Below are positions 2,745 through 35,117 of a stretch of 64,000 bases of DNA, piece after piece. The translations under genes were made by a program, and so were the position numbers. Where the stretch lies: positions 32,001 to 96,000 of the forward strand of contig CAVSHF010000005.1 in the NCBI GenBank assembly GCA_963727805.1. The letters run 5' to 3'. The notes under the pieces were generated by a model. The model saw only the letters and a list, made by a program, of their open reading frames with translations, was not told the origin of the DNA and searched no databases. This DNA is from an uncultured Nitrospiraceae bacterium. Its GTDB lineage: Bacteria; Nitrospirota; Thermodesulfovibrionia; Thermodesulfovibrionales; Dissulfurispiraceae. Every line of letters begins with the position of its first letter. Position 1 is the stretch's first letter.

Positions 2745-3441
2745 CTACTTATAATCGCGAGTCCGCCCGTTAAGCTACAGATACGATGGTCGAGTAGGCC
2801 GGTGGAATCGCACCACCAGCCCCTCACAGATTCCGTACGTGAACCTCTCGATTCATACGGCTCGTGTCAATCATCAAGTTGAGTCTTTGCAGTCTCAACC
2901 ATACACATTGAGCGATAGTTCCTCCTGGTCACCCAGTTGACTGGTACTCTTTGTGGATTGACCCATCCCCTTCCCTCCACGGCTTATTATCACCGCTTCA
3001 TCGGTACTATTGGACGGTCCGACCCCTTCACCTGCATCGATACTTTCCCCCTTCGTTTGCACTTATAGGGTTTTCTCTTAGCATCAGATGAAGAGTTCCC
3101 GCGTTCCACACAGGAGCCTAGATCAGCTTCATGCCGCCTCTATGCCGGACGCCGTTCAGGCAGTAAACAGGTATCTCCTGAACTAATCCTGATGCAAAGT
3201 AAGAACATCAGTTTTGACGTCGTCCTTTTCCTTTCGACACCTCATCAGCGGTTCGCTTACGCTCATCTCTCTGATCCATCCCTGACACGATCTAGTCGTG
3301 CCTTTTCCTTTAACGCTCACCACCGGAGCCTTTCGACTACAGCAGCTTAAGGTGGGTTGAAGCCTGCTCCTGCAAGCCGGCTTCGAGGGGCCAACCCTCA
3401 TCTTCCTGTGCAGCCTCGTGGCGCACTTACGACCGGAAAGT
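2745..3441 (+). repeat. 59-bp array site A, split by an ORF-less group II intron
   Basis: CTACTTATAAT (2745-2755) + 33 nt | intron | TTACGACCGGAAAGT (3427-3441). Confidence 0.85.
2789..3426 (-). ncRNA. ORF-less group II intron (638 nt), copy 1
   Basis: 5' GTGCGCC, domain V GAGCCGTATGAATCGAGAGGTTCACGTACGG, 3' end CTACTCGAC; 5' half similar to the RT intron at 13111-14945; no ORF. Confidence 0.92.
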
Positions 3442-3503
3442 ATCTTGCTCAGTTCTCAAACCGAATCCTTTGCTGCCGAATGTCACAAGGTATAGCGACC
3501 TAG

Positions 3504-4091
3504 TCAGTTTGCGCCCGCTGGTTGGCCTTTCCTATCAATCCCCATGGAAGGGCTGCGATCATGCTTGCTTGCTCTCGCTCTATCAGCAATTGACCTGATT
3601 TCACCCAAAAAATCTTTCATTGCTATTTCAGTTTCGTTCTGAATACTCCCCATAATATAGCTGTTCGTTTTTTTAACAGCATCGTTGATAACTTTCAGTT
3701 CGCGCTGACCTTCCGGGGTTTTGTAATGCGCGATTGCAGCACGCATATCACTTTCTGGCAGCCCATCAACTAAGGATGCTGAATATATTCTTGCTGCCTC
3801 CGCCGAATTCCAGGAATTAGTAACTCTGTGACCAAACTCCTGCGCCGCTACTTTAAATTCTTTCAAGGCTGAGTCGGGTATATTCGGATTGGAGTTCTGA
3901 AGCTGTGCAATGATGCCATCCATTTGTCCCTCAACCATTTTGATTGTATCCTTGCGTACCGATTCTAGCATTGAATCAAATCCAAGAACCTGCATCAAAT
4001 CTTTTGCTAGTTCCGTTTGGTCTGCCGCTAATGCAATATTTGATGTCGTACCAATCAGAATAACAACCACAAACATAATAATTTTCTTCAT
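3504..4091 (-). CDS. Secreted DUF2059-like protein
   Basis: Signal peptide; 'DMRAAIAHYKTPEGQR' resembles the DUF2059 motif. Confidence 0.65.
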   Translation of the reverse strand: MKKIIMFVVVILIGTTSNIALAADQTELAKDLMQVLGFDSMLESVRKDTIKMVEGQMDGIIAQLQNSNPNIPDSALKEFKVAAQEFGHRVTNSWNSAEAARIYSASLVDGLPESDMRAAIAHYKTPEGQRELKVINDAVKKTNSYIMGSIQNETEIAMKDFLGEIRSIADRARASKHDRSPSMGIDRKGQPAGAN

Positions 4092-4108
4092 AATCATCTC
4101 CTTTTGTC

Positions 4109-4177
4109 TTGCCACTAAGAATCTCACTGGGAGGCGTGGGGAGTTTCACGCCGATCCAGTGAAGCGTGATGTTATAT
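4109..4177 (-). repeat. Degenerate integron attC-like site
   Basis: ATATAAC just after the lepB stop, palindromic core GCTTCACTGGATCGGCGTGAAA..CACGCCTCCCAGTGAG; R' GTT box degenerate. Confidence 0.6.
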
Positions 4178-4185
4178 CGGCTTTA

Positions 4186-5034
4186 TTATTGAACAGGCTT
4201 ACCAATCCTGTCCCAACGAACCTCGCGATTCACTTTATCCCATGACCAATACAAACTCATGACCTTGCCCTCAATTGTATCCTTTGGAACATAGCCCCAG
4301 AAGCGGCTATCGTAGCTCTGATCACGATTGTCGCCCATAACGAATAATTTTCCCGGCGGAATGGTAACTGGACCAAAATTGTCTCTTGGGTCTCGAAAAC
4401 TGCTGGAATCAGTATTGATCTTGTAAGGTTCTGATTGTTCTTTACCATTAATATAAAGTCTTTTGTCTCTGATCTCGACAATATCGCCTTCAACAGCAAT
4501 GAGTCTTTTGAGCCAAGCACGTGAGGGATCCTCAGGATAGGGGAATATGATGATGTCGCCACGCTTTGGTTCTGCAGTTTTATATATTAATTTGTTCACC
4601 AGAATATGATCGCCGAGTAGCAATGTCGGCATCATGGCACCGGAGGATATGTTGTATGCCCGAATCAAATTGGCTTTTACGCCAGCAGATACAAGCGTTG
4701 ATACCAAAAATGATAAAACAACAACGTAGCCAACATATACAAACCATCTGTTATATTTTGCTACTTCGTAGTTCTCTTTATGTTTTTTTGCGATTGATAC
4801 CGCGTCGACGACACAAAAGACGATAAAAGCTAGGCCGCCAACTAACGCGAAGACCAAGGAAGCAGGGTTGGGTACAATGATAAGCACTGAAACTGCAAAG
4901 ACAATCAATAAACATTGCTCAATACCGAATAATATCAGACCTCTTTTGGGGCTGCCCGAGTATAGGTGACCAAGACCCCTTGTCAGTAATGTTAGTAGTG
5001 CAGCGATCCATGGTCGCCTGGGCTTATTGGTCAC
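4186..5034 (-). CDS. lepB: Signal peptidase I with N-terminal membrane domain
   Basis: S.AMMPTL..GD, KRLIA..GD, GDNRDQSYDSRFWG. Confidence 0.92.
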   Translation of the reverse strand: MTNKPRRPWIAALLTLLTRGLGHLYSGSPKRGLILFGIEQCLLIVFAVSVLIIVPNPASLVFALVGGLAFIVFCVVDAVSIAKKHKENYEVAKYNRWFVYVGYVVVLSFLVSTLVSAGVKANLIRAYNISSGAMMPTLLLGDHILVNKLIYKTAEPKRGDIIIFPYPEDPSRAWLKRLIAVEGDIVEIRDKRLYINGKEQSEPYKINTDSSSFRDPRDNFGPVTIPPGKLFVMGDNRDQSYDSRFWGYVPKDTIEGKVMSLYWSWDKVNREVRWDRIGKPVQ

Positions 5035-5168
5035 AGTATGCCCCCCAATATTTGATAAATAACAATTATTAAGCCAACTTGGTATTTACTGCCAAAAGTA
5101 TATCACATTGCAACGGAGATTAGAACAAAATCCATTAAAAGTATTTGTCACAATTGCGTTCGTGTGTT

Positions 5169-5227
5169 CTACTTATCATTGCGATTGCGTCACCCACGCC
5201 GCGGACGCTATGTTTCAGCTGATAATT
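5169..5227 (+). repeat. 59-bp array site B
   Basis: CTACTTATCAT-N33-TTTCAGCTGATAATT; internal GCGTC/GACGC stem. Confidence 0.7.
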
Positions 5228-5344
5228 GTCAATATTTGAGCCGGAGCATCGCAAATCTTAATTCCTCGACGCCCCGGCTAAGGGGAAGGTCTTGCTGCGT
5301 TGATCTCCTATGTCAGAACTCTGGATGTTGTTTGTCTGCTCCGC

Positions 5345-5527: not shown

Positions 5528-5574
5528 AATAATCTCCTTTGGTACTTACATTTTGATATCGTCGATATTTACAT

Positions 5575-5867: not shown

Positions 5868-5926
5868 CTACTTAAAATCTCGATCATGTCATTTGGGGCC
5901 AGAGCTGGAGAATATTTCTGGCAATC
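5868..5926 (+). repeat. 59-bp array site C
   Basis: CTACTTAAAAT-N33-ATATTTCTGGCAATC. Confidence 0.78.
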
Positions 5927-6053
5927 ATCGCATTAAACCATGTCGAAATATGAAGCTAATTTGACCGAAACACCACGACGTGTCAGACTTAATCATTCCC
6001 GCATGCATTAGGGAAATCAACATTCTGGTTTTTGATGGTAAAGTAACAGTGCT

Positions 6054-6641
6054 ATGAAAAAGCTCGGCCGGTCATTTTTTCATCAAGACGCGATCAAGCT
6101 TGCGCGCGCTTTGATCGGAACAATTCTCGTGCATCGTGTTCGGGGCAAGGAATACCGGGCGCGCATCGTAGAAACCGAAGCATATCTCGGCCCCAATGAC
6201 CTTGCTTCCCACTCCTCCAAAGGCAGAACAAAACGGACCGAGGTCATGTTCGGCCCTGCTGGTCATGCGTACGTCTACCTCATCTACGGGATGTACAACA
6301 TGTTCAATATTGTCGCGGGTGAAACTGGCAAACCACAGGCCGTGCTCATCCGCGCGGCCGAACCTCTCGATGAGTGGCGAGCTGATCTTTCCGGCCCTGG
6401 CAAACTCACGCGCGCTCTCAAAATCACTCGCTCTTACAATAGCATGGATCTATGCGGCGACAGGTTGTATCTTCTCTCCGGTTCCCGAATACGACTGCGG
6501 ATAAAAAGAAGTAAACGTATCGGCATTGAGTACGCAAAAGAATGGAAAGATATGCTGTTGCGTTTTTATGATGCGGATAGTCCAGCAGTGAGTGGCAATG
6601 TAAGCTGCCGGACACGCCCCAGTAATGCCATGCTAATATGA
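6054..6641 (+). CDS. DNA-3-methyladenine glycosylase (MPG/AAG family)
   Basis: IVETEAYLG..D.ASHS, YVYLIYG, AVLIRA, GPGKL, RIGI. Confidence 0.93.
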   Translation: MKKLGRSFFHQDAIKLARALIGTILVHRVRGKEYRARIVETEAYLGPNDLASHSSKGRTKRTEVMFGPAGHAYVYLIYGMYNMFNIVAGETGKPQAVLIRAAEPLDEWRADLSGPGKLTRALKITRSYNSMDLCGDRLYLLSGSRIRLRIKRSKRIGIEYAKEWKDMLLRFYDADSPAVSGNVSCRTRPSNAMLI

Positions 6642-6759
6642 AAAAAAAAGGAACAGTAACGGGCATGGACAACACGGAAACAAGCGCAGGCATTACCGGG
6701 CGGCATGCGGAGTCTAAGTGGGACGTCTCAGCTACCCGATCCTCGATAACTACTCCTAC

Positions 6760-8405
6760 CCCAGTTAATTCATAAATTTTCAGAACTGAGCCGAATTGAA
6801 GCTGTTTCATCGCTGAGAGCACGGTAGAATGGATTGTCAGTCAACTTTTTGAGGTGACGAGAGGCTTGTGGTCGCATGCAATACGATGTATGGGACACTG
6901 CAGCCCTGTTTTGAGCGCACTTCACCCGTTGGAACTTTACTGTGCTTTTGGGCTTCGGGAAATTTCAGCAGGTATCAGCGGCAAGTCGTCGATATGCCAA
7001 GGCAAAGATGTCTTTCCAAGGATAGCCGCTCGCCAGGCGGAACCATACCCGTCTGGCTGTCTGAACTACTTGGCCGCCGATCTTTAAGATCCTTGTCCTG
7101 AGCTGCTGAATCTGCATCGATGAGAACTCTGTTTCAGCAAGCGCTTGTCTGAGCCGCAGTACGAGCCAATATGCAGCCATGTGCAGAAAAAGCCTGAACT
7201 GATTGGCAGCAAAACGATGGCAACTTAACCGATCCGCCTTCAGCCCGTTTTTGAATTCATCAATGCGCACCTCGCAAGTGCCACCGCGCTCTGTGTAGAA
7301 CTCGTAGAGTTGTTTGGCCTCCATAGAAAGATTCGTCACCACAAACCGACGGTTTGGTCCCTGCGGCAGCCATTCGGCCTTCATGATTACTCGGCGTTCT
7401 TTTTCCCAGCTCTGTGCCTGATAAAAACCCTCTGCAAAGAGTCGTTGCTTCTGTCCTGTCTTTTCGTGGAGAGATTGTACCTTCTCAAGAAGTCTTTCGA
7501 TCATTCGCTCCAGTACGTCGTTGCGAATAAGGCCGATTACATAACTCAGCTTTTCTTTCTCGCAGTACTCATATAAGGCCGGGATCGCAAACCCCGCGTC
7601 ACCTCGTATGATGATCTCAGCATTGGGAAACGCTGCCTGGAGCTTCGCCACTATCCGCTTCAAGATTGAAACCACGCCATAACTTGCGTGTCGATTGCCT
7701 GCCCTCAATACTGCTGTGATCATCTCTCCTGTATCAGCATCATAGACCAACAAAGGATGATACATATACTGATCATAGTAGCCGTGAAAAAAGGTGAGCT
7801 GTTGGTCCCCATATGTAGGATCGTCGGTGCCGTCGACATCAATGATGATTCGCTTTGGCTTACGCTTCCGGTTGCGACGGACATACAGATCAACAAACCA
7901 CTGCCCCATCCGATAAAGATCTTCTTGGGTTACGGTGTTCTCCAACCTCGACAGTGTAGGCTGCGATCCCAGTTCCTTGTCGCTTGGCATCCTGCCGCAA
8001 GCTGCTTTCAATGCGGGATCTTTCCTCAGAAAGTTCGCGTCATTGCAGTCTTCATAGCCTGCCACTATCTGATATATTCGCTGTCTCAGAAGAGTCAACA
8101 AGTCATGATCTGTGTACCGACAATCCCGCCGGTCTGTGATGCAGCTCGCCAATCCTTTCAAGAGTCCCAATGCTTGATCGGCCTGCCTGACAAGCAGAAG
8201 TCCGGAGTCAGATGTGATCTCTCCGCCTCCAAAATCCACCGTCAGTTTGCGCTTCCGCAGGAATGAAAATCCAAGCTGTTCTGTGTTACACTTTGTCATA
8301 GTAGCCAATGTCCTTTCTTGGGTTTTTGTTGCTCGCACCTTCAATAATACCAAGGTTCAAAGGACGTTGGCTATTTTTTTGCCGATTATTTATGAATTAT
8401 CTGGG
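6760..8405 (-). mobile_element. IS1380-family IS
   Basis: IR CCCAG(T/A)TAATTCATAAAT; 4-bp duplication CTAC. Confidence 0.92.
6965..8299 (-). CDS. IS1380 transposase
   Basis: F.GG.ITSD.G, GYED.ND, SQPTLSRLEN, RGDAGF, FAANQFRL. Confidence 0.95.
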   Translation of the reverse strand: MTKCNTEQLGFSFLRKRKLTVDFGGGEITSDSGLLLVRQADQALGLLKGLASCITDRRDCRYTDHDLLTLLRQRIYQIVAGYEDCNDANFLRKDPALKAACGRMPSDKELGSQPTLSRLENTVTQEDLYRMGQWFVDLYVRRNRKRKPKRIIIDVDGTDDPTYGDQQLTFFHGYYDQYMYHPLLVYDADTGEMITAVLRAGNRHASYGVVSILKRIVAKLQAAFPNAEIIIRGDAGFAIPALYEYCEKEKLSYVIGLIRNDVLERMIERLLEKVQSLHEKTGQKQRLFAEGFYQAQSWEKERRVIMKAEWLPQGPNRRFVVTNLSMEAKQLYEFYTERGGTCEVRIDEFKNGLKADRLSCHRFAANQFRLFLHMAAYWLVLRLRQALAETEFSSMQIQQLRTRILKIGGQVVQTARRVWFRLASGYPWKDIFALAYRRLAADTC

Positions 8406-8778
8406 CTACACATCACCGCAGGGATATTGCTCATTATTCAAGCTTTCTTCCGGTAATCTAGACCGAAGCTCTTCCAATGGAAATCTTACCTGCACCTGAT
8501 ACACAACATTCGGCCATCTAAGAGACAGTGTTGGTTTCCAGTATAATCTGCTAAAACATTTTGTCTCAATTCCTTCCTGTACACCGCAAGAAGAGCACCA
8601 TGTGAGGCACTGCGATTTTTGTCTGATAAGTAACGAGCCAAAGGAGATACATGAGATGCGACCTGCACCGGGATTATTGTGCTTGTCGTCTCATCCATTT
8701 GGGGCTATAGTGTTAGTACAAAGGTGAGTGGTGAGTATTGCAATGCACTGCAGTGAACTTAGAGGAAGGAGAAACACA

Positions 8779-12021: not shown

Positions 12022-12080
12022 CTACTCATAATCTCGAGTCCGCTCGATATGGTACAGATACTAGGTTACGACCGGTAATT
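12022..12080 (+). repeat. 59-bp array site D
   Basis: CTACTCATAAT-N33-TTACGACCGGTAATT. Confidence 0.85.
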
Positions 12081-12550: not shown

Positions 12551-12609
12551 CTGCTTATTATCTCGAGTCCGCTCGTTATGGTAAAGAGACTAGGTTACGA
12601 TCGGTAATT
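12551..12609 (+). repeat. 59-bp array site E
   Basis: CTGCTTATTAT-N33-TTACGATCGGTAATT; spacer near-identical to site D. Confidence 0.85.
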
Positions 12610-13110
12610 GTTAAGCCTTCCCACCCAAGTGACCAGATTATTGCCAAGGTCGTCCCGTCGGACTCCTTTCTTCTTTGATAAATCCGCACGGCACTGCTGG
12701 TTCATTTATTTAGTTGCTGTTGCTTGACTCTGCCTGTTTCGTGATAGAATTGAGAAACCATAGAATAATCTTAAAGGAGACTATTAGATCAAGGAGTTGA
12801 TAAATGGAGAGAAATATTCAACGCGAATTTATGGCAGCGCCGTGGTTTGTCGGTCTTTGGGCAGTTTGGGGAGCTGCATGTTTACTCACTGTATTTCTAA
12901 AATTGCTAATGGGTAAATGGATAATTGCAACATGCTATTTAATAATGGCTTCCTCAATGGCTTTTCTTGTTTATAGATTTTTAAATAACCCAATAATTAA
13001 ATTCCGCATTGACTCAATTGAAATTCTGAACGGGCCTATGTTCTCTGTGAGACATATCTCGAACTCTGATATTTCGCGTCTCGAAAATAAGAGCAATTCT
13101 AAATATAGGA

Positions 13111-14945
13111 GTCGAGTGGCGCGAGGGAATCTCACCCTCACGCTCTCCCAGATCCGGACGTGACAGTCTCCCGTCATCCGGCTCCTATCATCCAGCCTAA
13201 GGTTGAAACCCAGCAATCCAATGGGCGAACAGAGAAGGCTGTCGACAGGCTATCTGTCTCAACCATATTGTCGCCCTCCGGTTATTGGATTTAAACCATT
13301 TGTATTTCCTTTGCATGCATCGGACTAGAATACTATTGAAAGTTTTGAAGATCGGGTACAGTGCAGATTTGTAGTACTGACCATAGTAGTTGATCCAACC
13401 CCGAAGGACTGGATTACAGAAACGTGAAAGCTCTTCAAGGCTCTTGTCACTGCGCCGGTGAATGAACCAACTCCTCATGACTCCACGAATTGCACTGGAC
13501 GCCTTATTACTCACAGCTGGGCTGAAGTTCACAAAGTAATTTCCAGACCGACTCTTTGATCTCCGGGGTCGAAAAGTGTACCCGAGAAAATCAAAGCTCT
13601 CATTCAGGTAACTCTCTTGTCTCAATCCATCCTTACAATAGACAATCTTTGTCTTTTCAGGATGAAGCTCCAGCTTGCACTGCGTAAGCCGCCGTCCAAT
13701 CTCCGTTCTGAGCCATTTGGCTTGCTTCTCACTTTTACAGTGCACAATAGCGTCGTCGGCGTAACGCTCGAAAGGAATGGTTGGAAAGTTTCGTTTCATC
13801 CACTCATCAAACGCATAGTGGAGGAAAAGATTAGCGAGCAGTGGACTTGCGACACCCCCTTGGGGAGTGCCCTTGTCACGGCTCACTCGCGTTCCGTCTT
13901 TCAATTGGGCAGGGGCCTTAAGCCATCGCTCAATGTATAACAGAATCCACTTGCATTCAGTATGCTTTCTAACAGCACGCATAACGAGGTCGTGATCCAG
14001 ATTATCAAAGAACCCTTTGATGTCTAAGTCCACAACCCAGTCATAACGCCAGCATCTCTGACGTGCTACCCCTACCGCTTCAATCGCTGACTTTCCCGGC
14101 CTGTATCCATAGGAATCCTGATGAAAATGAGGCTCCACTTCAGGCTCCAGATACATCTTAACCACCATCTGCGCAATCCGATCTCCTACCGTAGGAATAC
14201 CCAGAGGCCTTATACCTCCGTTATCCTTCGGTATTTCCACGGTGCGCACCGGTGGCGGAAAGTAGCTCCCCGACGACATCCGATTCCAGAGCTTGTAGAG
14301 ATTATCCTTAAGATTCCTCTCAAACTCCTCGATCGATTCCCCATCCACGCCAGCAGCACCACCATTTGCCCTTACCCGTCTAAAGGCTTCCAATACTACT
14401 TGCTTAGAAATACTAAACGGCTTTGCCTTACTCAATAGCTCCTCCCAACAAATGGTTGACTATTCAATAAAGCTGGACGATGTAGCCCCTTTGCTCCGGT
14501 CCCATTACGAACCTTCATCGCTACTGCTGGCTACTCCGCCTCTGTGCTCCGCATCGGTACTCTCATTCTCATGGGGCCACCACTTGAACTTCTCCCTTAG
14601 CATCGGAGCGACAGTTTCCCACGTTCCACACAAGAGCCTGGATCAGCTTCATGCCGCCTTTATGCCGGACGCCGTTCAGGCAGTAAACAGGTATCTCCTG
14701 AACTAATCCTGATGTAAAATAAGATACATCAGTTTTGACGTCGTCCTTTACCTTTCGACACCTCATCAGCGGTTCGCTTGTGCTCATCTCTCTGATCCTT
14801 ACCTGACACGATCTTGTCGTGCCTTTTCCTTAACGCTCACCACACTGGCTCTTTACCAGTGCAGCTTAAGGTGGTTTGAAGCCTGCTCCTGTAAACCGGC
14901 TTCGAGGGGCCAGCCCTCATCTTCTTGTGCAGCCTCGTGGCGCAC
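13111..14945 (-). mobile_element. Group II intron with RT/maturase ORF (bacterial class D-like)
   Basis: 5' GTGCGCC, domain V GAGCCGGATGACGGGAGACTGTCACGTCCGGATC, 3' CACTCGAC. Confidence 0.93.
13197..14435 (-). CDS. ltrA: Group II intron reverse transcriptase/maturase (no En domain)
   Basis: LWNRMSSGSY, RPLGIP, GTPQGG, YADD, FLGY, GWINYY. Confidence 0.96.
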   Translation of the reverse strand: MSKAKPFSISKQVVLEAFRRVRANGGAAGVDGESIEEFERNLKDNLYKLWNRMSSGSYFPPPVRTVEIPKDNGGIRPLGIPTVGDRIAQMVVKMYLEPEVEPHFHQDSYGYRPGKSAIEAVGVARQRCWRYDWVVDLDIKGFFDNLDHDLVMRAVRKHTECKWILLYIERWLKAPAQLKDGTRVSRDKGTPQGGVASPLLANLFLHYAFDEWMKRNFPTIPFERYADDAIVHCKSEKQAKWLRTEIGRRLTQCKLELHPEKTKIVYCKDGLRQESYLNESFDFLGYTFRPRRSKSRSGNYFVNFSPAVSNKASSAIRGVMRSWFIHRRSDKSLEELSRFCNPVLRGWINYYGQYYKSALYPIFKTFNSILVRCMQRKYKWFKSNNRRATIWLRQIACRQPSLFAHWIAGFQP

Positions 14946-15164
14946 TTATCTTGGCAAATCATAAATCAATTGCACTTCCTATTAAATGGTTGAAAAAGGT
15001 GGAGCGCAAATTGGTAATTTCTGAAATAGAAAAAAGAGTTACTAAGACGGTCAGTAAAAATGTCGGATGATTTTCCCAATAAAATTATACGCTTGGCAAT
15101 CTTCACTGCTGTTGACTGCAGCTATCATCATTTGGTGGGATCGAGAACAGACCACTGAAAATTC

Positions 15165-15223
15165 CTACTTAAAATCTCCATCTCTGCATATGAGGCGCGG
15201 GGTGGAGATTATTTCTGAAAATC
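15165..15223 (+). repeat. 59-bp array site F
   Basis: CTACTTAAAAT-N33-TTATTTCTGAAAATC; AATCTCCA/TGGAGATT perfect stem. Confidence 0.85.
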
Positions 15224-16305: not shown

Positions 16306-16364
16306 CTACTTATAACCTTTAAAAAAGCCTACCATGAGTACACTGATGGGTACGAGCGCAAATC
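16306..16364 (+). repeat. 59-bp array site Q
   Basis: CTACTTATAAC-N33-GTACGAGCGCAAATC; shared leader to its left. Confidence 0.65.
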
Positions 16365-18492: not shown

Positions 18493-18551
18493 CTACTTAA
18501 AATCATCATCGTGAGGACACTGCTCATTATGCAAGATTTCTTCCAGAAATC
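18493..18551 (+). repeat. 59-bp array site G, with an IS1111-type element inserted at its right edge
   Basis: CTACTTAAAAT-N33-TTTCTTCCAGAAATC; the tail TCTAGACTGAAGCTCTTC resumes at 20142, as after sites F and P. Confidence 0.85.
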
Positions 18552-21695: not shown

Positions 21696-22185
21696 TAGGA
21701 CCGAACTGATCGATCTTCTTGCCGTTCTGCTCGTTATACATTGAGACGAGAAGCCAGGTTCCCTGGATCTGCTGTGCCAAACTGGGACCCTTGTCCTGGG
21801 CCCAGACATCAGACGCTCTAGACAGCGCCCCACTAGCAAGAACGGCAACAACCAACAAGACCTTTATCGCTTCCTTAATAGACCAGTTCATTGTGTTTCT
21901 CCTTCACTAAGTTCAGCACAGTCCATTACATTACCTTCCTGTTGCATAAAATATTCTTTGATTGCCTGTCCGCAGCAGTTGAAAGCCAGCAAGAATGTGT
22001 GAGGCATCTTAGTTATACTGTCTTTGTTCCATCACACAATTATACTCCTGGATGAGCGTATCATTTCAAGAACGTTACAACATAGCGAGCTTTCTTCCGG
22101 TAACATTTATCCATCTTCTCTGCTAAAATGGTGAGGAGTACAGACGTTTTTTCTAATATACAGTGACCAGTATAAAAGAGGAGGA

Positions 22186-22500: not shown

Positions 22501-22559
22501 CTACTTATAATCGCGAATCTGCCCACCACGTCACAGATGCTTTATTACAACCGGAAGTC
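22501..22559 (+). repeat. 59-bp array site H
   Basis: CTACTTATAAT-N33-TTACAACCGGAAGTC; ATCTG/CAGAT stem. Confidence 0.85.
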
Positions 22560-23374: not shown

Positions 23375-23443
23375 CTACTTATAACTACTTAAAGTCATCG
23401 CCGCAGCGATACGGTTCAAGGCTCAAGATTTCTTCCCGTAATC
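23375..23443 (+). repeat. 59-bp array site I, with a tandemly duplicated left arm
   Basis: CTACTTATAA|CTACTTAAAGT-N33-TTTCTTCCCGTAATC. Confidence 0.8.
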
Positions 23444-25002: not shown

Positions 25003-25253
25003 TACTCTACACTGCGGATATTTTGCCACAGTAACAGTTACCGTTTGTAACCCTCGCACCAAGACCACAATTCAAAATGCGGTGTTCATGTCGTAAATCT
25101 CACCGAAGTAGATCAGCAGAGCCAGGTTAACGCCCCCACTTCAAGCAGTCAATAAGCACAATAAACCTGTGATTGCTAACGGTAGTAGGACATTTCCTCG
25201 GGGTCACCGTGGGAATGTTTCACTGTCAATCGCCATTTCTGCTACTATCTACT

Positions 25254-27582: not shown

Positions 27583-27870
27583 TATTTAGCAAGTTGATGC
27601 ATGGATTACAAATGCAGTGGAAATTAACCACTTAGAATTGAAGTTCAACGCCTACCAACGTGGAGTTATAATCTCCTCGCAATCAAGAGCGGCACCCTTT
27701 TCTGGAAAATGTGGGCTCCACCGACGAGTCTTGAATTTTACTTTCACCAGGCAGAATGATTTTCAGTTGTACTGTAGCTCACCGACAGAAAATTGACGTT
27801 ACGTATAGCATGTCGAAATCATCGATAGTAAATAATCGCCCACCATAGAGACTTCTACTCCTACACATCA

Positions 27871-29292
27871 AATATGGTATAACCAGAGTATGGACGGTTG
27901 TTAACCGTTCATAAGGGGCAGGAGGACGTGGTTTCCTACAGGGTCAAGAATCCTTTAATAAGTCAGTCCCCTGTCTCCCAAAGCCATGATAAATTGATAG
28001 GGCTACGAGCTCTTGTAAAGATGGAGATATGGTTGGGAGGCATTCCTGCCTAAGGTCCTATGCGGGAGGTGGTTGGAAATGAGCAAAGCATTCGTTGGCA
28101 TCGATGTGTCAAAAGAGCACTCGACTGCCCAAAGCATCGACAGTGACGAAAAGAAGCTTTTTTATTTAAGGTTCTCAATGGACTCAGCGGGGTTCGCAGA
28201 GCTTCGGACTGCTATTAAAGGATGCGGGGTGAACCCGGAGGATATTGTAGTGGCGATGGAGTCCACCGGCTGTTATCATATCAATCTCTTTTCCTTTCTA
28301 TGTGCGGAGGGACTTCGTTGTGCGGTAGTAAATCCGCTTCTGATATCCAAATTTGTTCAGGGATCATTGAGAAAGACCAAGACAGATAAGAAGGATGCGA
28401 TGACCATAGCGCAGTTTCTTCTGAACAATGAGAAGAAGCTGTGCGTGGTAACGTCATCCCAAGATGCGCAGGATCTGAGGGATCTGGCCAGGGAACGAGA
28501 GTCTCAGTCATGGATGATTGCATCACTTAAGAATGACCTCAAACGGCTGCTGCAGAGCACCTTCCCCGAGCTTGAGACACTCCGCAAGAATATTTACACT
28601 GAGACGATGCTGAACTTTGTTCGACAGTATCCATCGGCCAGATTAATCCGGGAGGCAAAGAGGAAAGATATCGACAAAGCACTCATCTGCCCCGGGGAGA
28701 AGCGCAAAAGAGTCCAGATTAGCGCCGACGATCTTATTGAGGCGGCAAAGCGTTCGGTGGGCTCAGCTGCTACAGCGAAGGAGCTTATCGTCTCTGAGAA
28801 GGCAACCACGATCCTGTATCTTCAGGAAAAGTGTGAGAAGATTACCGAGGCATTGGTGGATGCGTGTGAGGCAACACGGATCGAAGATCTTGAGATAATG
28901 AAGACGCTCGACGGGGTGAAAAACATCCTTGGCAGCAGCTTTCTAGCGGAGATGGGAGAGTTGTCCAACTTTAAATCATATAAGAGCTTGATAGCATACA
29001 TGGGGTTCGATCCATCGACTCATCAATCGGGGAAGCATGTGGGGCCAAGCAAAATATCCAAACGAGGGAATCGTCATATGAGGCGCATCACCCATATAAT
29101 GACACTCGGTTCAATAAAATCTGACAATATATTCAGAGAATATTATCTCAGAAGGATAGCCGAAGGATTGCCTAAGATGAAGGCATTAATGGCGACTTCT
29201 CACAAGCTAATAAGAGTGATCTTCTCTATGCTTACACATAGGATGCCGTTTAAAAAGGAGGTGGCTGCTGTATAGTTGACTTATTATCAACA
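27871..29292 (+). mobile_element. IS110-family element with a ~200-bp left non-coding end
   Basis: Boundaries deduced from comparison with site P; CA core at both junctions. Confidence 0.8.
28079..29275 (+). CDS. IS110-family transposase
   Basis: VGIDVSK, MESTG.Y, KTDKKDA, G.DP...QSG, ISKRGN. Confidence 0.95.
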   Translation: MSKAFVGIDVSKEHSTAQSIDSDEKKLFYLRFSMDSAGFAELRTAIKGCGVNPEDIVVAMESTGCYHINLFSFLCAEGLRCAVVNPLLISKFVQGSLRKTKTDKKDAMTIAQFLLNNEKKLCVVTSSQDAQDLRDLARERESQSWMIASLKNDLKRLLQSTFPELETLRKNIYTETMLNFVRQYPSARLIREAKRKDIDKALICPGEKRKRVQISADDLIEAAKRSVGSAATAKELIVSEKATTILYLQEKCEKITEALVDACEATRIEDLEIMKTLDGVKNILGSSFLAEMGELSNFKSYKSLIAYMGFDPSTHQSGKHVGPSKISKRGNRHMRRITHIMTLGSIKSDNIFREYYLRRIAEGLPKMKALMATSHKLIRVIFSMLTHRMPFKKEVAAV

Positions 29293-29444
29293 CCGCAGGG
29301 ATATTGCTTATTAATCAAGGTTTCTTTCGATAATCAAGACAATTACTGTCTGCGTTATTGGATTGATTTCGGGATTTTATGGTATGTGTAACCGATATCC
29401 CGAAATCGGAAAAGCTTCTTGAGATAAGATTCAGCTCCTCACGC

Positions 29445-29774
29445 TTATCGACTTACTTTGGCGGCAACAAGACGATTCAAGCTTACTCCAGTTTCAGCAG
29501 ATTCGATAGCAAGCAATCTGTGTGTTTCGGGTGTAACGCGAACCACAAATTTTCCACTGTAGTGCCGATTTGCGATCGGTTCTGGAATAGGCTCTCCAGT
29601 CTGTTTCATATCATTAACCGCCTCGGCGACAACTTTGCGGATGCCTTTCAGGGCAGCTTCGGGCGTTTCTGCTAACCAACTTAAGCTTGGAAATTCGGCA
29701 CAAAGTCCGACATACTCCTCGTCGTCTGTCGACCAAGTCACCCTATATGTATAATGATCATTCTTCAATTCCAT
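29445..29774 (-). CDS. hicB: HicB-family antitoxin
   Basis: YTYRVTWS..D.EYVGLCAEFPSLSW, YSGKF.VR, GVSLN. Confidence 0.9.
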   Translation of the reverse strand: MELKNDHYTYRVTWSTDDEEYVGLCAEFPSLSWLAETPEAALKGIRKVVAEAVNDMKQTGEPIPEPIANRHYSGKFVVRVTPETHRLLAIESAETGVSLNRLVAAKVSR

Positions 29775-30018
29775 AATTCACCTCCAAGATCTCAATGGCT
29801 TTAATCACCTGTTTTACCTGATAGCTCTTAGCTTTCCCTTTAGCATTTTGAATGTTTATCCGCGGATCTCCCTGCCAAGGCGTTCTATATATTCTATGAC
29901 TGCTTCCTTTTTGCCTAGCAGCGCCAAAGTAGTGGTCACAGACGGTGCATAAGTCAGCGAATCTGACATTGCCAGGATTATTCTTCATCTGTGAAACCAT
30001 TTCAGCAATGTTTGGCAT
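29758..30018 (-). CDS. hicA: HicA-family toxin
   Basis: NP.NVRF.DL, GSSH.IY.TPW.GDPRINIQ, KAK.YQVKQ; overlaps hicB. Confidence 0.88.
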   Translation of the reverse strand: MPNIAEMVSQMKNNPGNVRFADLCTVCDHYFGAARQKGSSHRIYRTPWQGDPRINIQNAKGKAKSYQVKQVIKAIEILEVNYGIEE

Positions 30019-30024
30019 GGTTTA

Positions 30025-30054
30025 ATTATAGTATCAATAATAGTACTATGTCAA
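30025..30054 (-). promoter_or_regulatory. sigma70 promoter of hicAB with an overlapping palindromic operator
   Basis: TTGACA-N18-TATAAT on the - strand; ATAGTACTAT palindrome inside. Confidence 0.7.
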
Positions 30055-30187
30055 TGGCTGTCAATATAAATATCAACATTGCACTTGAAAATCTAAGGTA
30101 TGACGAATCAGCATGATAATCCGACGGCCATTTATTTATTGCGGACGGGCGGATGGATAAACAATGGATGTGCCCAGTTCTCAGTAA

Positions 30188-30244
30188 CTACTTAAAATCA
30201 ATACCTGAGGGCTTCCTGAATGTACTTGTGAGTACGTGGAAATC
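30188..30244 (+). repeat. Array site K (2 bp short)
   Basis: CTACTTAAAAT-N31-GAGTACGTGGAAATC. Confidence 0.6.
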
Positions 30245-30685: not shown

Positions 30686-30749
30686 TTCATTTCTTTTAAT
30701 CGTACACGTCCCTTTGTCATCTTTCTGAGACTATAACACAAAATTACTT

Positions 30750-31446
30750 CTACTTATAATCTCCAATGCGGGGAAACTGCTCATTTTGTAAGGGTCGAGT
30801 AGGCCGGTGGAATCGCACCACCAGCCCCTCACAGATTCCGTACGTGAACCTCTCGATTCATACGGCTCGTGTCAATCATCAAGTTGAGTCTTTGCAGTCT
30901 CAACCATACACATTGAGCGATAGTTCCTCCTGGTCACCCAGTTGACTGGTACTCTTTGTGGATTGACCCATCCCCTTCCCTCCACGGCTTATTATCACCG
31001 CTTCATCGGTACTATTGGACGGTCCGACCCCTTCACCTGCATCGATACTTTCCCCCTTCGTTTGCACTTATAGGGTTTTCTCTTAGCATCAGATGAAGAG
31101 TTCCCGCGTTCCACACAGGAGCCTAGATCAGCTTCATGCCGCCTCTATGCCGGACGCCGTTCAGGCAGTAAACAGGTATCTCCTGAACTAATCCTGATGC
31201 AAAGTAAGAACATCAGTTTTGACGTCGTCCTTTTCCTTTCGACACCTCATCAGCGGTTCGCTTACGCTCATCTCTCTGATCCATCCCTGACACGATCTAG
31301 TCGTGCCTTTTCCTTTAACGCTCACCACCGGAGCCTTTCGACTACAGCAGCTTAAGGTGGGTTGAAGCCTGCTCCTGCAAGCCGGCTTCGAGGGGCCAAC
31401 CCTCATCTTCCTGTGCAGCCTCGTGGCGCACTTACGACCGGAAATC
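30750..31446 (+). repeat. 59-bp array site L, split by an ORF-less group II intron
   Basis: CTACTTATAAT-N33 | intron | TTACGACCGGAAATC. Confidence 0.85.
30794..31431 (-). ncRNA. ORF-less group II intron (638 nt), copy 2
   Basis: Appears identical to 2789-3426 by eye; flanks differ. Confidence 0.92.
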
Positions 31447-31584: not shown

Positions 31585-31614
31585 TCAATGCCGGTAAAAT
31601 AACCGGCATTGAGA
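31585..31614. terminator. Strong hairpin downstream of the Cys-rich gene, possible terminator
   Basis: CTCAATGCCGGT-aaaata-ACCGGCATTGAG. Confidence 0.5.
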
Positions 31615-31691
31615 TGGCAAACAGAATGAGATATCTTTTGAGCCCAGACAAAAAAAGGTCAGCGGCTCTCCTTATGGACCATTCCCCGCAA

Positions 31692-32645
31692 CTATTGCAA
31701 CTGCAGGTTGAACACAACGTTGTCTATCTTACTCGCCGCCTTGATGGTAAAGGTCATGGTCCACCATCCGGGCATACTGAACTTTATTCCCTCGACAAGG
31801 TAAGTACCGTCACCGAGGTTTTTGGTCACCTTCGGCTCTGTGGGGAGACCGTGGCCATGTTCCGGCATACCACCGTTGACAGTGATCTCTGCATCCTTTA
31901 CTGGCTGACCATCAATTGTCTCGACCTTCAGTTTCCAGCTTATGATTTTATTTACAGGAATCACTTCAGGGTCACTGAAATAGGTGACCTTGAAACTGCC
32001 ATCTTTAGATTTCATGGTTTTGGCATAATCATTATCAGAAGTCGGTTTCACGGTAGATACATCAGTCCCGACCTTATGGCACCTGCACTCACCCTTACCG
32101 GTTTTACAGTGCTCGCACGTGCAACCTGCGCCGCAGGAACAACCCTTTTCACCCGCCTTGCACTTACATTCGCCTTCTCCGGTTTTGCAATGTTCGCATT
32201 GACAGTTCTGACCGCACTGGCAGCCTTTGGCCCCCTTATCGCACTTGCACTCGCCCTTACCGGTTTTACAGTGCTCGCACGTGCAACCTGCGCCGCAGGA
32301 ACAACCCTTTTCACCCGCCTTGCACTTACATTCGCCTTCTCCGGTTTTGCAATGTTCGCATTGACAGTTCTGACCGCACTGGCAGCCTTTGGCCCCCTTA
32401 TCGCACTTGCACTCGCCCTTACCGGTTTTACAGTGCTCGCACGTGCAACCTGCGCCGCAGGAACAACCCTTTTCACCCGCCTTGCACTTACATTCGCCTT
32501 CTCCGGTTTTGCAATGTTCGCATTGACAGTTCTGACTGCACTGGCATTTAACGGTATCTCCAAAGGAGAGGTCAGAAAACGAAGCAGTGCCAAAAAATAC
32601 TAGAACGCTGACAATCAAGCACGTCGAGAGAATTCTTTTCAACAT
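31692..32645 (-). CDS. Secreted protein: six Cys-rich metallothionein-like repeats + YtkA/FixH-like domain
   Basis: Signal peptide; 6 x CxCxxxCxCxHCxxGxGxCxC; C-terminal GGMPEHGHGLPTEP...FSMPGWW. Confidence 0.8.
   Translation of the reverse strand: MLKRILSTCLIVSVLVFFGTASFSDLSFGDTVKCQCSQNCQCEHCKTGEGECKCKAGEKGCSCGAGCTCEHCKTGKGECKCDKGAKGCQCGQNCQCEHCKTGEGECKCKAGEKGCSCGAGCTCEHCKTGKGECKCDKGAKGCQCGQNCQCEHCKTGEGECKCKAGEKGCSCGAGCTCEHCKTGKGECRCHKVGTDVSTVKPTSDNDYAKTMKSKDGSFKVTYFSDPEVIPVNKIISWKLKVETIDGQPVKDAEITVNGGMPEHGHGLPTEPKVTKNLGDGTYLVEGIKFSMPGWWTMTFTIKAASKIDNVVFNLQLQ
32079..32548. repeat. 162-bp tandem repeat, ~3 near-identical copies, in frame
   Basis: GCACTTGCACTCGCCCTTACC recurs at 32241 and 32403, with a variant at 32079. 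Confidence 0.9.
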
Positions 32646-32869
32646 AAAGACGGCCTCCTTTCACAAAGTTTATGGTTTTAATTGTAACAAATCCATTGTG
32701 CATTACACTACTAAAGTCAATTGGGAAGGTCAGGTTGTAATCAACGAAATTTTCATGATGCTCCTATGTTGCTTTTTGTGAGACCCAGATAGCGGCCAGG
32801 GCGCGTCTGTCTTTATAGACTTGTAAGTGTGGTCTGCGATAAAAAACGCAACATGATAGGTCGTGATAT

Positions 32870-32928
32870 CTACTTAAAATCTCCAGTGTGCGGATAAAGC
32901 TCATTGCACGAGGTTTCTACTGGCTATC
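32870..32928 (+). repeat. 59-bp array site M
   Basis: CTACTTAAAAT-N33-TTTCTACTGGCTATC; AAATCTC/GAGGTTT and CAGTG/CATTG stems. Confidence 0.82.
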
Positions 32929-32958
32929 ATCAGCTGTCAAGGCTGGCGTCTCATCGAC

Positions 32959-33306
32959 CTACAAGCGTTTGGATATAGAACTTAGCTTTCGATACAGCCA
33001 AGGAAGCATTTGGAACCACTGGAAATAACCTATAGCTACAAAAAGCGGCCAAATACATAGACTAAACACAATACCGCCCGGAACAACGAGACCGGTAAGG
33101 TTAAACAGCATTTCGAAAATCCCTCCCAGTAGCGCCATTAAAGCGTACCCAGTAGGGAACGTTAAAAATAGCATCAAATAACAAAACGCGATATCAGCAT
33201 CGGGGATCTCTCGTTGCACAAAAGCAAACACGAGGACGGCTAGGCAGCTACAGAGCCATAGTAACAAAAGGATGCGGCCAGGCAGTTTATGTGGAATCAT
33301 CATCAC
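32959..33306 (-). CDS. Small membrane protein
   Basis: 115 aa, 3 TM segments, sole gene between sites M and N. Confidence 0.65.
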   Translation of the reverse strand: MMMIPHKLPGRILLLLWLCSCLAVLVFAFVQREIPDADIAFCYLMLFLTFPTGYALMALLGGIFEMLFNLTGLVVPGGIVFSLCIWPLFVAIGYFQWFQMLPWLYRKLSSISKRL

Positions 33307-33429
33307 TTGACGATTAACCGCTAATTTCTTTTATTTTCATCTTTCTGCAACATAGCACAATTTTAGGCATCAGAATGAATAGTAACTCCTACATATAGAA
33401 TATCCAGGGGGGCTCACAATCTATCATAG

Positions 33430-33488
33430 AATCTTATAATCGCGAGTCGGCTCGCTACGCAACAGATACCATGTTACGACTGGTAATG
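33430..33488 (+). repeat. 59-bp array site N
   Basis: AATCTTATAAT-N33-TTACGACTGGTAATG; spacer similar to A/D/E. Confidence 0.8.
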
Positions 33489-33913
33489 CTCAAAGCTGAG
33501 TTGCCCAATTCGCTTAGTGTGGTTGTTGTGTGCACTCCTTTTCATGATCCTCCAGATAATGGCAACAGCTAACCGAGGCACAAGGCAGTTCCCCTTCCGG
33601 TGGTAGCCTCCGGGTGAAGCACCACCGGAGTGCGGCCAAACCAGAAACAGATAGTAGTATTGCCAGTAGTCCTACCCCGGCCAGCATAATAACTAGGCCG
33701 GCTGCCACTAGCTGTCCTGCCACTATCAGAAGCCTGATCGTTACTGACCTTGCCTTACACATAACCCACTTACTGCTGTTTTCCCCCACGCTGATCCAGC
33801 GCAGCTCCTAGTTATAGGTGCTTTCAATCCAGCGACTCCTGATCTGGCGTCTCTCGCTCACCAACAGTATTACCGAGGCGTCATAGTCCCGCTTGTGCTT
33901 TCCGTCTCATTGC

Positions 33914-34516
33914 TTATTTCTCTATTTCAGGCGGTATGCCAATTATCGGCAACTCGATGTCCGCTAAGTTTATTAGAATAATATTACTAAGCTTTGACAT
34001 CTCTATGACACGAGCAGCACGTGCCGTTACTATCGGTCCAAAAGAATCTTTTGGAAGAAAGAAATCGCACCCATCCCATTGATCTAATCCCACATGAAGG
34101 CCTTTGTAGAATTTCCCAACTGGTCCATTTGGAAGCAGCCGTTTCTCAATAATAGCGGATTTATTATAATCAATTGGCCCGCAGCGTCCAGTGATACTCA
34201 ACCCGTGAAACCCCGAAATCATCTCGCCATTTATTTTGCTCACGACAACTGGAAATACCATCCAACCAGTTAAACTATTCATCGTTAGAACATCTTTTAG
34301 TTTATCCGAAATAAGATACAAGCCTACCCGCCCAGTATCTAATACATCTCCTATTTTATGCCCATATTTATGCTTAAACTGTATTGGAAATTGAATATTC
34401 GCATAGTCGCCCATCAACAATGCAGCTTTGGCATATTTTCCGACTGTATGAACCTGAAAATTTGATGCTAGCAATTTGCTTCCAAAATCATAAAAATAGT
34501 TTATTTCTAGTTTCAT
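33914..34516 (-). CDS. Hypothetical protein, possibly an Imm11/DUF1629-like immunity protein
   Basis: D.L......LIS.KL..VL....LTG and WDG.DFF......IVT resemble this group (from recall only). Confidence 0.45.
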   Translation of the reverse strand: MKLEINYFYDFGSKLLASNFQVHTVGKYAKAALLMGDYANIQFPIQFKHKYGHKIGDVLDTGRVGLYLISDKLKDVLTMNSLTGWMVFPVVVSKINGEMISGFHGLSITGRCGPIDYNKSAIIEKRLLPNGPVGKFYKGLHVGLDQWDGCDFFLPKDSFGPIVTARAARVIEMSKLSNIILINLADIELPIIGIPPEIEK

Positions 34517-34650
34517 TCCTATTTCGTGGGCCAGCACGTTTGCAATGTCATATATATAAATACCGATCACATAGTGATTAAAAGTGTACAGCGATATGCA
34601 CATCCTTACCTATCTGATCGGGAGTGAACTGCCTTCTTATCTTCATTCAA

Positions 34651-34899
34651 TCATAAATTCTTAATGAATGCCCACATTAGAAACAAGGAGCAGATTAAAG
34701 CTAGTGCACCAACTACCCTAACATTTATCAAATAGCTAGCCGATTTCACAGAGTTCTTAAGCATATCACTATGAGCGGTAAGTCCTTGATTAACATTATT
34801 GATCGCAGAGGCCTGAATCTTCTCTGGGAATATCAAACAGACTATTCCAAGTAAGAACAGTAGCAATATAAAGAGCAATAAGCCAATAGTTTTCATGAT
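34651..34899 (-). CDS. Small 2-TM membrane protein
   Basis: AT-rich ORF directly after a truncated ORF tail. Confidence 0.6.
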   Translation of the reverse strand: MMKTIGLLLFILLLFLLGIVCLIFPEKIQASAINNVNQGLTAHSDMLKNSVKSASYLINVRVVGALALICSLFLMWAFIKNL

Positions 34900-35058
34900 G
34901 TTCACCACTTACACCCAGAATTACCGGGGCCTTGGAATGAATAGTTATAGCTGCCTCCAAATTGAGGTGTGACTATGCCAGCACCTCTAGCAATTCCATT
35001 CCCCCGGAGACCCAGATACAGATGCGCCATCTTTCTGCAATATAGCACAAAATTGTTC

Positions 35059-35117
35059 CTACTTATACCCTTGATCCCGCCCGATATATCGAGGCTGCTT
35101 TGTTTCAACCGGCAATC
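35059..35117 (+). repeat. 59-bp array site O
   Basis: CTACTTATACC-N33-TTTCAACCGGCAATC. Confidence 0.78.

Follow-up and report, generated by a model that had tools for sequence, protein, structure and literature searches.

A 59-bp site that recurs between unrelated genes in an uncultured Nitrospiraceae bacterium probably serves a gene-collecting system as its point of exchange, because the genes between its copies are unrelated and the neighbouring DNA changes at bases 1–7 of the site. The evidence supports the view, put forward in the initial annotation, that the sites belong to a cassette-collecting system of neither the attC nor the dif type; a candidate recombinase, IntX, lies just outside the window, as had been predicted. 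The window is the whole stretch of 64,000 nucleotides that was analysed. In the preferred reading, to which we give a probability of about one half, the site is double-stranded and composed of two units, and a tyrosine recombinase, likely the adjacent IntX, crosses over at the first core and adds or removes gene units. No description of such a site system was found in the literature searched. Below, G000 is the genome under study, and C5 and C3 are its contigs; other G numbers denote other genomes.

Architecture and distribution of the site

The site consists of two palindromic units (TTWC-N5-GWAA) placed 47 bp apart. Its outer arms, earlier regarded as unrelated, each reproduce a single palindromic unit of 17 bp. 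In each of the three site sets, the units at offsets 1 and 48 score as copies of one another, and palindromy at key pairs is 0.64–0.89 about position 51 and 0.55–0.60 about position 4. In G000, 30 arm pairs are spaced at 47 bp vs. at most 3 at any other spacing; in IntX loci, the corresponding numbers are 78 and at most 9. The pattern originally proposed, with up to 3 mismatches, gave 7 matches vs. 0 in 100 shuffles, which upholds the description of a co-oriented, intergenic repeat of fixed length. Genome-wide, G000 contains 53 matches, on which the scanning model was itself partly trained.

A hairpin recognised as a single strand had also been suggested, and this idea has to be abandoned: the mean fold z is about zero (+0.10/+0.08 for 70 sites and −0.11/−0.13 for 94 sites), and no covarying stem was found. 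The attC boxes RYYYAAC and GTTRRRY occur together in 0 of 261 sites on either strand, and a heuristic search of positions 1–36500 of the window returned 0 attC candidates. A universal site of about 100 bp was rejected, as sites in general lack a conserved third unit. Of 74 CTACTTA-type sites, 12 do have a further co-oriented core at 93–94, and one of 122 CTTCCTG-type sites has a core at 94 in reverse orientation.

The same geometry extends to distant anaerobic relatives: with other cores, e.g., CTTCCTG, it recurs in Nitrospirota and Syntrophales-type genomes. Within the order, sites are carried by 14 of 110 genomes; the exact site pattern was not found in viral contigs. The sites are not scattered genome-wide in the manner of a regulator site but clustered in accessory DNA, where 37 of 73 neighbour gaps are shorter than 5 kb vs. 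6.8 expected. An operator or promoter, in which two dimer boxes 47 bp apart would bind a transcription factor and regulate adjacent genes, is the least probable of the alternatives considered. It would agree with two palindromic boxes in an intergenic position (1 of 70 G000 sites falls inside an ORF of more than 150 aa) and with TATAAT in 23 of 261 left arms. However, the mean −35 match is 1.4 of 6, the cargo is functionally unrelated, neighbour orientation is mixed and reverses between lineages, and the core junctions and 7-bp duplications described below would be left unexplained.

In the window (Table 1), both arms at a 33-nt spacer are found directly at 12 of the 17 listed positions, with 1–4 right-arm mismatches. 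Three more sites are only interrupted by inserts, so the spacer is present in 15 of 17 once the insertions are discounted; the 16 of 17 first reported was slightly too high, as site 6750 is broken and 30188 is shortened. Removal of the insertion restores 59 bp at sites 2745 (intron) and 27855 (IS110), and site 30750 is cut by the intron at the same position as 2745 (44|45). The intron, 638 nt long in both sites, belongs to group II, and only group II intron matches were returned by an Rfam scan of the window. The core CATGTCG at the end remnant of a two-recombinase element lies 46 bp left of the 27855 core. The units between sites span 529–5272 bp, a wider range than the 0.5–4 kb given before, and their composition does vary (GC 0.425–0.578). 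The earlier cargo names (lepB, MPG, CDF, hydrolases, hicAB) stand, since Pfam gives S26 peptidase, MPG, CDF, alpha/beta hydrolase and HicB. The reported preference for the minus strand was not confirmed: cargo may lie on either strand with respect to the site. The array extends left of the window, with sites at C5:19646, 26448, 28946 and 30548, and reaches IntX through the last two.

Table 1. Site copies, units and associated features (window positions unless a contig or locus is named).
Feature	Position	Strand	Remark
IntX	G000 C5:27486-28325 (= L002:11486-12325)	−	candidate recombinase
Site split at 44|45 by ORF-less group II intron	2745..3441	+	intron 2789-3426, minus strand
Intact 59-bp site	5169..5227	+	
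Intact 59-bp site	5868..5926	+	
MPG glycosylase unit	6015..6711	+	95–96% identical in G003 and G013
Broken site	6750..8458	+	left arm, IS110 end remnant, IS1380 (6760-8408), right arm 8444-8458
Intact 59-bp site	12022..12080	+	
Intact 59-bp site	12551..12609	+	
Intact 59-bp site	15165..15223	+	
Intact 59-bp site	16306..16364	+	
Intact 59-bp site	18493..18551	+	
Lone right arm	22091..22105	+	
Intact 59-bp site	22501..22559	+	
Intact 59-bp site	23385..23443	+	
Possible variant site	25036..25093	−	46-bp spacing, core CGACATG, weak score
End remnant of two-recombinase element, then core CATGTCG	27797..27820	+	
Site split in its core by IS110	27855..29335	+	IS110 27860-29281, 1422 bp
hicB-containing unit	29336..30187	−	86–89% identical in G005 and G010
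Site with shortened, degenerate right arm	30188..30244	+	
Site split at 44|45 by same ORF-less group II intron as 2745	30750..31446	+	intron 30794-31431
Intact 59-bp site	32870..32928	+	
Intact 59-bp site	33430..33488	+	
Intact 59-bp site	35059..35117	+	array's last full one
Lone right arm	36277..36291	+	
Weak reverse-strand site	42289..42347	−	past array

Junctions, putatively mobile units and guest elements

Junctions between shared and unrelated DNA had been expected inside the site, and this is borne out for the left flank, where they centre on the 7-bp core. All five Syntrophales-type pairs with only the left flank in common agree up to and including base 7, and none of the five agrees at base 8. 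In a wider set of nine non-IS pairs, the left-flank breaks fall at −6, −5, 7, 7, 7, 10, 14, 14 and 17. The right-flank junctions do not fit as well, being scattered over bases 1–42 (1, 3, 15, 21, 30, 30, 40 and 42), and the MPG unit ends outside the sites, at half-core-like sequence 148 bp into and 38 bp before the nearest 59-bp sites. In 54 further pairs, only the site middle is common and the flanks on both sides are unrelated. For these three reasons, site-to-site units are not the sole moving pieces.

Sites 12551 and 12022 have middles that are 90% identical and differ in both flanks. Site 33430 recurs together with its right-hand cargo (33433-33786) at C3:790714, with a different left flank, and the hicB unit adjoins sites in three genomes with different neighbours. 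A view of the 59-mer as a small non-autonomous mobile element or a scar, landing at random in accessory DNA and leaving arrays of insertion debris rather than cassettes, is very unlikely. The 54 middle-only pairs, near-identical 59-mers with different neighbours in G000 and G003, and an array rich in IS copies point in that direction. The idea is, however, already weakened: pairs alike in one flank only break at the core, 36 of 37 close site pairs are co-oriented, the length stays constant across lineages although the middle diverges, and the column profiles of the sites contain neither a conserved flanking duplication nor a terminal inverted repeat. Neither an excised circle nor a cassette-skipping joint was seen in the reads, which gave only low-depth contigs, and synteny with genus members at 73–74% identity yielded no clean empty-versus-filled chromosomal pair. 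A joined form present in read run X1 was not found in G000. In read run X3, two loose ends, possibly from separate records, match the flanks of site 2745 without the intron.

Several mobile elements have entered the site. The two-recombinase (“duo”) element holds two adjacent, overlapping genes in 2.07 kb between terminal inverted repeats. At 3 of 14 loci, a copy of CTTCCTG borders each end of the element and the second unit then follows at the 47-bp spacing (13–17.5 bits), and CGACATG and CACCCTG are likewise duplicated around its copies in G003. Because the 7-bp core is duplicated around the integrated element, a duplication seen for duo and not for ordinary cargo, bases 1–7 are best read as the overlap of a tyrosine recombinase. 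IS91, IS110 and the group II intron also insert at sites. The recombinase-carrying IS91 sits at base 1|2 of a site in 6 of 8 copies, which may hint at the reason for the presence of a tyrosine recombinase in some IS91 elements. The IS91-linked recombinase was rejected as the cognate enzyme: it occurs in 4 of 40 relatives, overlaps poorly with the site-bearing genomes, and the element behaves as an insertion into sites.

The duo element, or one of its proteins acting in trans, might itself recognise the half-site and move the units, with IntX as a long-standing passenger on its own inverted repeats. Duo contains the only recombinase for which sequence documents integration at the core with a 7-bp duplication, and many copies of the element have ends that adjoin C-N5-G and a half-site. 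It is present in the site-bearing genomes G077, G070 and G103, and end remnants remain in G000, one of them within the window. We nevertheless consider this role unlikely, as the element is found in only 3 of 110 genomes within the order and in 9 of the 71 from Syntrophales-type bacteria, its genes were not found in G000, a strong second unit stands at just 4 of 33 listed ends, and ordinary cargo units have no duo end.

IntX as the candidate recombinase

The preferred enzyme, IntX, is a 279-aa XerA-like recombinase encoded 3.7 kb left of the window, at the array start. It stands alone, with no adjacent second recombinase gene. The predicted catalytic residues R142, K165, H224, R227, H251 and Y260 are conserved; a single-sequence structure prediction, with a pLDDT of 41.6, was too poor for use. 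A matrix trained on G000 alone found 43 sites in 34 of 80 IntX loci vs. 1 in shuffles, and a held-out test found 51 sites in 32 of 80 vs. 0. Loci without a site numbered 32 of 80 in one scan and 48 of 80 in the held-out scan. For comparison, two sets of loci of other recombinases, of 93 kb and 87 kb, contained one site each. In the clade of 50–67% identity, a second core type lies upstream of IntX on the minus strand at 23 of 57 loci (shuffles, mean 0.58), and cores occur on both sides of the gene at 20 of 52. CTACTTA was found in 4 of 6 sites near IntX of at least 79% identity vs. 0 of 34 near the distant clade. Host lineage varies together with core type and with IntX clade and confounds the two.

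Co-occurrence across the order is weak: of 110 genomes, 14 have sites, 8 have IntX, and 3 have both. IntX was not found in G077, which has 10 site matches, and four IntX-bearing genomes of family f5 gave no site match. No IntX was found in plasmids or viral contigs. The gene is flanked by its own clade-specific inverted repeats, matching at 11 or more of 14 positions at 51 of 56 loci (control, 7 of 52), and these repeats may be its true target. Inversion of IntX between them was rejected, as no swapped flanks were seen at 56 loci apart from an internal repeat in L052. Serine recombinases were also rejected as the enzyme; G004 and G077 yielded none, and the ones in G000 lie away from the arrays.

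A host-encoded protein, such as XerC/XerD or another factor, could bind and recombine the site, in which case IntX, duo, IS91, IS110 and the intron would all be hitch-hikers. We regard this as quite unlikely. Sites do occur in G128 and G130, where neither IntX nor duo genes were found, and in G013, where IntX was not found; lone sites often stand at the ends of housekeeping operons, and no other conserved gene family was found adjoining sites. On the other hand, the likely dif of G000 (C3:516986, located by its consensus) is canonical and has only ATAA in common with the left arm, no XerD arm follows that arm, and sites occur in just 14 of 110 genomes, yet Xer-type genes are in every genome checked. 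The idea of a dif site or XerC arm was rejected on the basis of this comparison with dif.

In the preferred reading, strand exchange would occur across bases 1–7 (C-N5-G/A), and the second unit would be an accessory binding site, by analogy with DR1-DR2 for TnpI. The asymmetric core would keep the sites co-oriented; units would therefore be expected to leave as circles and to reinsert at sites whose core matches. Each core sequence would define its own compatibility class. IntX itself may be a unit bracketed by two outward-facing sites, and it could act in trans on scattered arrays.

Relation to known systems and biological meaning

Integrons are the textbook bacterial route for collecting gene cassettes. 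Like integrons and CALINs (PMC9024848), the present system has rows of co-oriented sites between unrelated single-gene units, toxin–antitoxin and small membrane cargo, arrays with and without a recombinase, and a tyrosine recombinase gene where its largest array starts. Unlike integrons, the present arrays have no attC boxes and no conserved secondary structure, their sites have a fixed length and a conserved 7-bp core, the cargo orientation is not fixed, and the recombinase is often nested between sites. No match to the IntI model TIGR02249 exceeded the cut-off in G000, G003, G004 or G077, and IntX scored 50.9 of 265 bits; a true IntI is present in G044, at a great distance from the sites listed there.

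The TnpI/IRS system of Tn4430 (PMC2847244) combines a simple tyrosine recombinase, a double-stranded core and motif copies as accessory sites, as proposed here, and favours directly repeated sites. Each transposon carries a single 116-bp IRS, whose accessory motifs are direct repeats and whose stagger is 6 bp (PMC2847244). Such a site lies inside a Tn3-family transposon and serves to resolve cointegrates. In contrast, there are dozens of sites per genome here, with an inverted accessory pair at 47 bp and a putative 7-bp overlap, and no Tn3 transposase was found among 60 window ORFs scanned. In pdif modules, XerC/XerD sites flank exchangeable gene modules. The likeness lies in short double-stranded tyrosine-recombinase sites that bound modules; unlike pdif, however, the present sites lack the 11-6-11 layout and the XerD arm, and are co-oriented rather than alternating. 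The duo element, with its adjacent, overlapping recombinase genes and terminal inverted repeats, resembles RIT and other multi-recombinase elements (PMC3414803); RIT elements have three adjacent recombinase genes, whereas duo has two and IntX stands alone. Duo would also be a guest or rival enzyme here, and the cargo units carry no such ends.

A broader interpretation, which we consider somewhat less likely than not, is an undescribed, widespread capture platform of anaerobic Nitrospirota and Syntrophales-type bacteria, made up of a dedicated 279-aa recombinase family, double-stranded core-plus-accessory sites, 7-bp address classes and four converged mobile elements. Arrays of independent address classes would build up separately to the left and right of the recombinase gene, and duo, the recombinase-carrying IS91, a bridge-RNA IS110 and the group II intron would have converged on the site as attC parasites have on integrons. 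Tools based on attC would miss such a system. A compact candidate recombinase with naturally varying 7-bp cores might find use in orthogonal integration addresses. If the interpretation is true, bacteria of anaerobic sediments and reactors would own an independent cassette system, with genes moving between genera, as the MPG and hicB units at 86–96% identity suggest.

Distribution and Anatomy of the Site

The 59-bp site is real, widespread and of the recombination type; it bounds exchangeable genes and belongs to none of the families tested. The probability that it acts as a recombination core is estimated at about 0.8. With up to 3 mismatches allowed, the pattern given in the initial annotation matched 7 times versus 0 in 100 shuffles, and 12 of its 17 listed copies are intact (disrupted ones are in the table). 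The array extends leftward past the window edge, and a core-free scan of window positions 43000-64000 found zero sites. In the whole source genome (G000; 3.89 Mb in five contigs), of which the window covers C5:32001-96000, a profile model gave 53 matches at E ≤ 0.01, partly including its own training sites. Of the 73 neighbour gaps among 76 matrix-called sites, 37 were below 5 kb (6.8 expected), with the same orientation in 36 of the 37 close pairs. Only 1 of 70 sites fell within a long ORF.

The site had been described as a hairpin. This is ruled out by folding z-scores near zero, with means of +0.10 and +0.08 on the two strands of 70 sites and of -0.11 and -0.13 for 94 sites, and by the absence of a covarying stem. 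The site is composed of a palindromic unit, approximately GNTTW-C-N5-G/A-WAATC, that occurs twice, with its first C at positions 1 and 48. In loci of the candidate recombinase IntX, the two units are sharply spaced at 47 bp (78 pairs, versus no more than 9 for any other spacing); a minor site class has a spacing of 45-46 bp. Within the first unit, the left half is weak, and the central 7 bases, the core, are the best-conserved stretch of the site within a lineage. The core types among 261 sites include CTTCCTG (97), CTACTTA (46) and several rarer recurring ones. A third core occurs at 93-94 in 12/74 CTACTTA-type sites. Two sites in one locus (L195:9754 and 9801) are stacked exactly 47 bp apart, so that the same sequence is both the second unit of one site and the core of the other.

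Several other features were observed. A contig of sequencing run X1 skips 324 bases at the tandem-repeat ORF, possibly through repeat collapse. The tRNA-3'-end-like repeats and the broken integrase near them are the remains of integrated elements at the right end of the array. The cargo includes an Imm11-like immunity protein. Single sites were seen directly after housekeeping genes and before accessory genes (L208, L202, L205, L209, L214); these prfA-, mog-, rodA-, his- and trmJ-like genes were named by eye from protein starts.

Table. Features in the window, the source genome and related loci
Feature	Location	Details
IntX gene	G000 C5:27486-28325 (minus)	279 aa, XerA-like; left of window
IntX-flanking inverted repeats	G000 C5:27451-27463, 28345-28357; most of L021-L100	13-20 bp
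IS91 element	G000 C5:23890-26451 + 7 copies (L121, L126, L128, L130, L132-L135)	299-aa tyrosine recombinase
IS110 family	window 27860-29281	8 copies, 88-100% identity
ORF-less group II intron	window 2789-3426, 30794-31431	638 nt; 10 near-identical copies genome-wide
RT-encoding intron	window 13105-14950	
Duo element	L111:7146-9222, L110, L103, L321, L325, L329	7-bp repeats on either side; present in several copies in G003
Sites 2745 and 30750	window	each split between positions 44 and 45 by the ORF-less intron
Site 27855	window	split by IS110
Site 6750	window	split by IS110 remnant and IS1380
Site 30188	window	right arm shortened
MPG unit	window 6015..6711 (+)	
hicB unit	window 29336..30187 (-)	
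Tandem-repeat ORF	window 31614-32645	three tandem ~108-bp copies
tRNA-3'-end-like repeats	window 39700-41500	three, degenerate, at about 39730, 40880, 41480
Broken integrase	window 39919-40134	phage type
Imm11-like protein	window 33914-34603	Pfam E 1.5e-4, below cut-off

Probable Exchange at the First Core

Integration by tyrosine recombinases leaves a duplicated core, as with the 7-bp duplication around the duo element. This 2.07-kb element, present in genomes G003 and G077, encodes two tyrosine recombinases and is bounded by terminal inverted repeats. A complete site surrounds it in 3 of the 14 loci analysed, with CTTCCTG on either side and the second unit following at 47 bp; other copies have different duplicated 7-mers or unlike 7-mers at the two ends. 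Because the 7-bp core is duplicated around the integrated element, the core can be read from these junction sequences as the recombinase overlap for the duo element, and we infer the same role for ordinary cargo.

Syntrophales-type pairs with only the left flank in common were identical through base 7 in 5/5 cases and at base 8 in 0/5. The enlarged set held 13 left-flank-only pairs, from which 4 were left out because IS110 ends were involved; the remaining 9 break at -6, -5, 7, 7, 7, 10, 14, 14 and 17. Right-flank-only pairs (n = 8) begin at 1, 3, 15, 21, 30, 30, 40 and 42, and 54 pairs in the Nitrospirota set have only the middle of the site in common. From these positions, the first core is the recurrent junction, though not the sole one. 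The initial reading as a gene-cassette array largely holds. In G005, the match to the hicB unit runs to base 13 of site 30188, at which point G005 carries a site of its own and different cargo. In G010, the unit is flanked by a site on each side. The MPG unit, with 95-96% identity in G003 and G013, ends in half-core-like sequence away from 59-bp sites.

The proposed mechanism would involve two recombinase dimers that bring a pair of cores together and swap strands over bases 1-7. By analogy with DR1-DR2 of TnpI, which are described as favouring directly repeated sites (PMC2847244), the second unit may serve as an accessory site. A mobile unit would have two unequal ends, one made up of the strong half-site, linker and accessory unit and the other of a weak half-site; it would leave as a circle and insert again where it meets a core that matches. 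Exchange that now and then takes place at a lone core or the second unit could explain why the other junctions are scattered.

The system works like an integron, but the site lacks the attC boxes and the hairpin, and no IntI scored over the cut-off in G000. attC sites are described as keeping their structure while their sequence varies (PMC9024848). The site is also unlike dif; the likely chromosomal dif of G000 is at C3:516986 (minus strand), close to a GC-skew switch. No such system was found in the consulted passages of two tyrosine recombinase classifications (PMC8138268, PMC3414803), the supplements of which may list IntX relatives. The site description was not found in the literature searched, in which few subscription papers were covered.

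IntX as the Candidate Enzyme

The tyrosine recombinases of G000 comprise two Xer-like proteins, 8 IS91 copies, a fragment, a molybdenum-regulator fusion and the stand-alone IntX. IntX keeps the catalytic residues and is nearest to archaeal XerA, both by sequence and by predicted fold. It has 2566 relatives at E ≤ 1e-20. Its closest relatives come from records titled Nitrospiraceae, Nitrospirota or Thermodesulfovibrionales, and more distant ones from Syntrophales-type records; the host lineage was deduced from this. The IntX gene is directed away from the array, and 621 bp separate it from the first site upstream.

A matrix trained only on G000 found 43 sites in 34/80 IntX loci versus 1 in shuffles; iteration on the same loci gave 101 sites in 48/80, which is not independent. 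Fixed matrices on 80 metagenome IntX loci found 51 sites in 32 loci versus 0 in three shuffles; at least 5 of these loci duplicate first-set loci. Around other recombinases, two sets of loci yielded 1 site in 93 kb and 1 in 87 kb. In the distant IntX clade, a site often has its start between +937 and +983 relative to the start codon (10/28 held-out loci), and a second core type occurs upstream on the opposite strand in 23/57 loci versus 0.58 in shuffles. Cores were present on both sides in 20/52 loci, with the downstream cores counted at up to one mismatch and without shuffle control.

Other observations count against IntX. Sites occur in 14 of 110 genomes across the order and IntX in 8, with 3 genomes having both; the assemblies are mostly fragmented, and the site model does not detect other core classes. 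In 51/56 loci versus 7/52 controls, IntX is accompanied by inverted repeats of its own, one just within the promoter and one following the stop codon. Their sequence varies by clade, with complementarity maintained; they may be operators, RNA pairing or the real target of IntX. Core type follows IntX clade, but it follows host lineage as well. If the site is a recombination core, the odds lean somewhat towards IntX as its enzyme, and IntX is the best candidate.

Other Mobile Elements at the Sites

Among mobile elements, IS1111 and group IIC introns are targeted to attC sites. Here, 4/10 copies of the ORF-less intron, which is related to the RT-encoding intron in the window, are in full sites, and most others are in lone-right-arm-like sequence. 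The IS91 element, with its own tyrosine recombinase, is inserted after base 1 of core-like sequence in 8/8 copies, and 6/8 also show a second unit at a spacing of 46-47 bp (p ≤ 2e-4 each versus 20,000 random NTWC-type positions). This enrichment suggests that its target choice reaches far beyond the usual tetranucleotide. All 8 IS110 copies are in CTACT cores and constitute a natural bridge-RNA target set.
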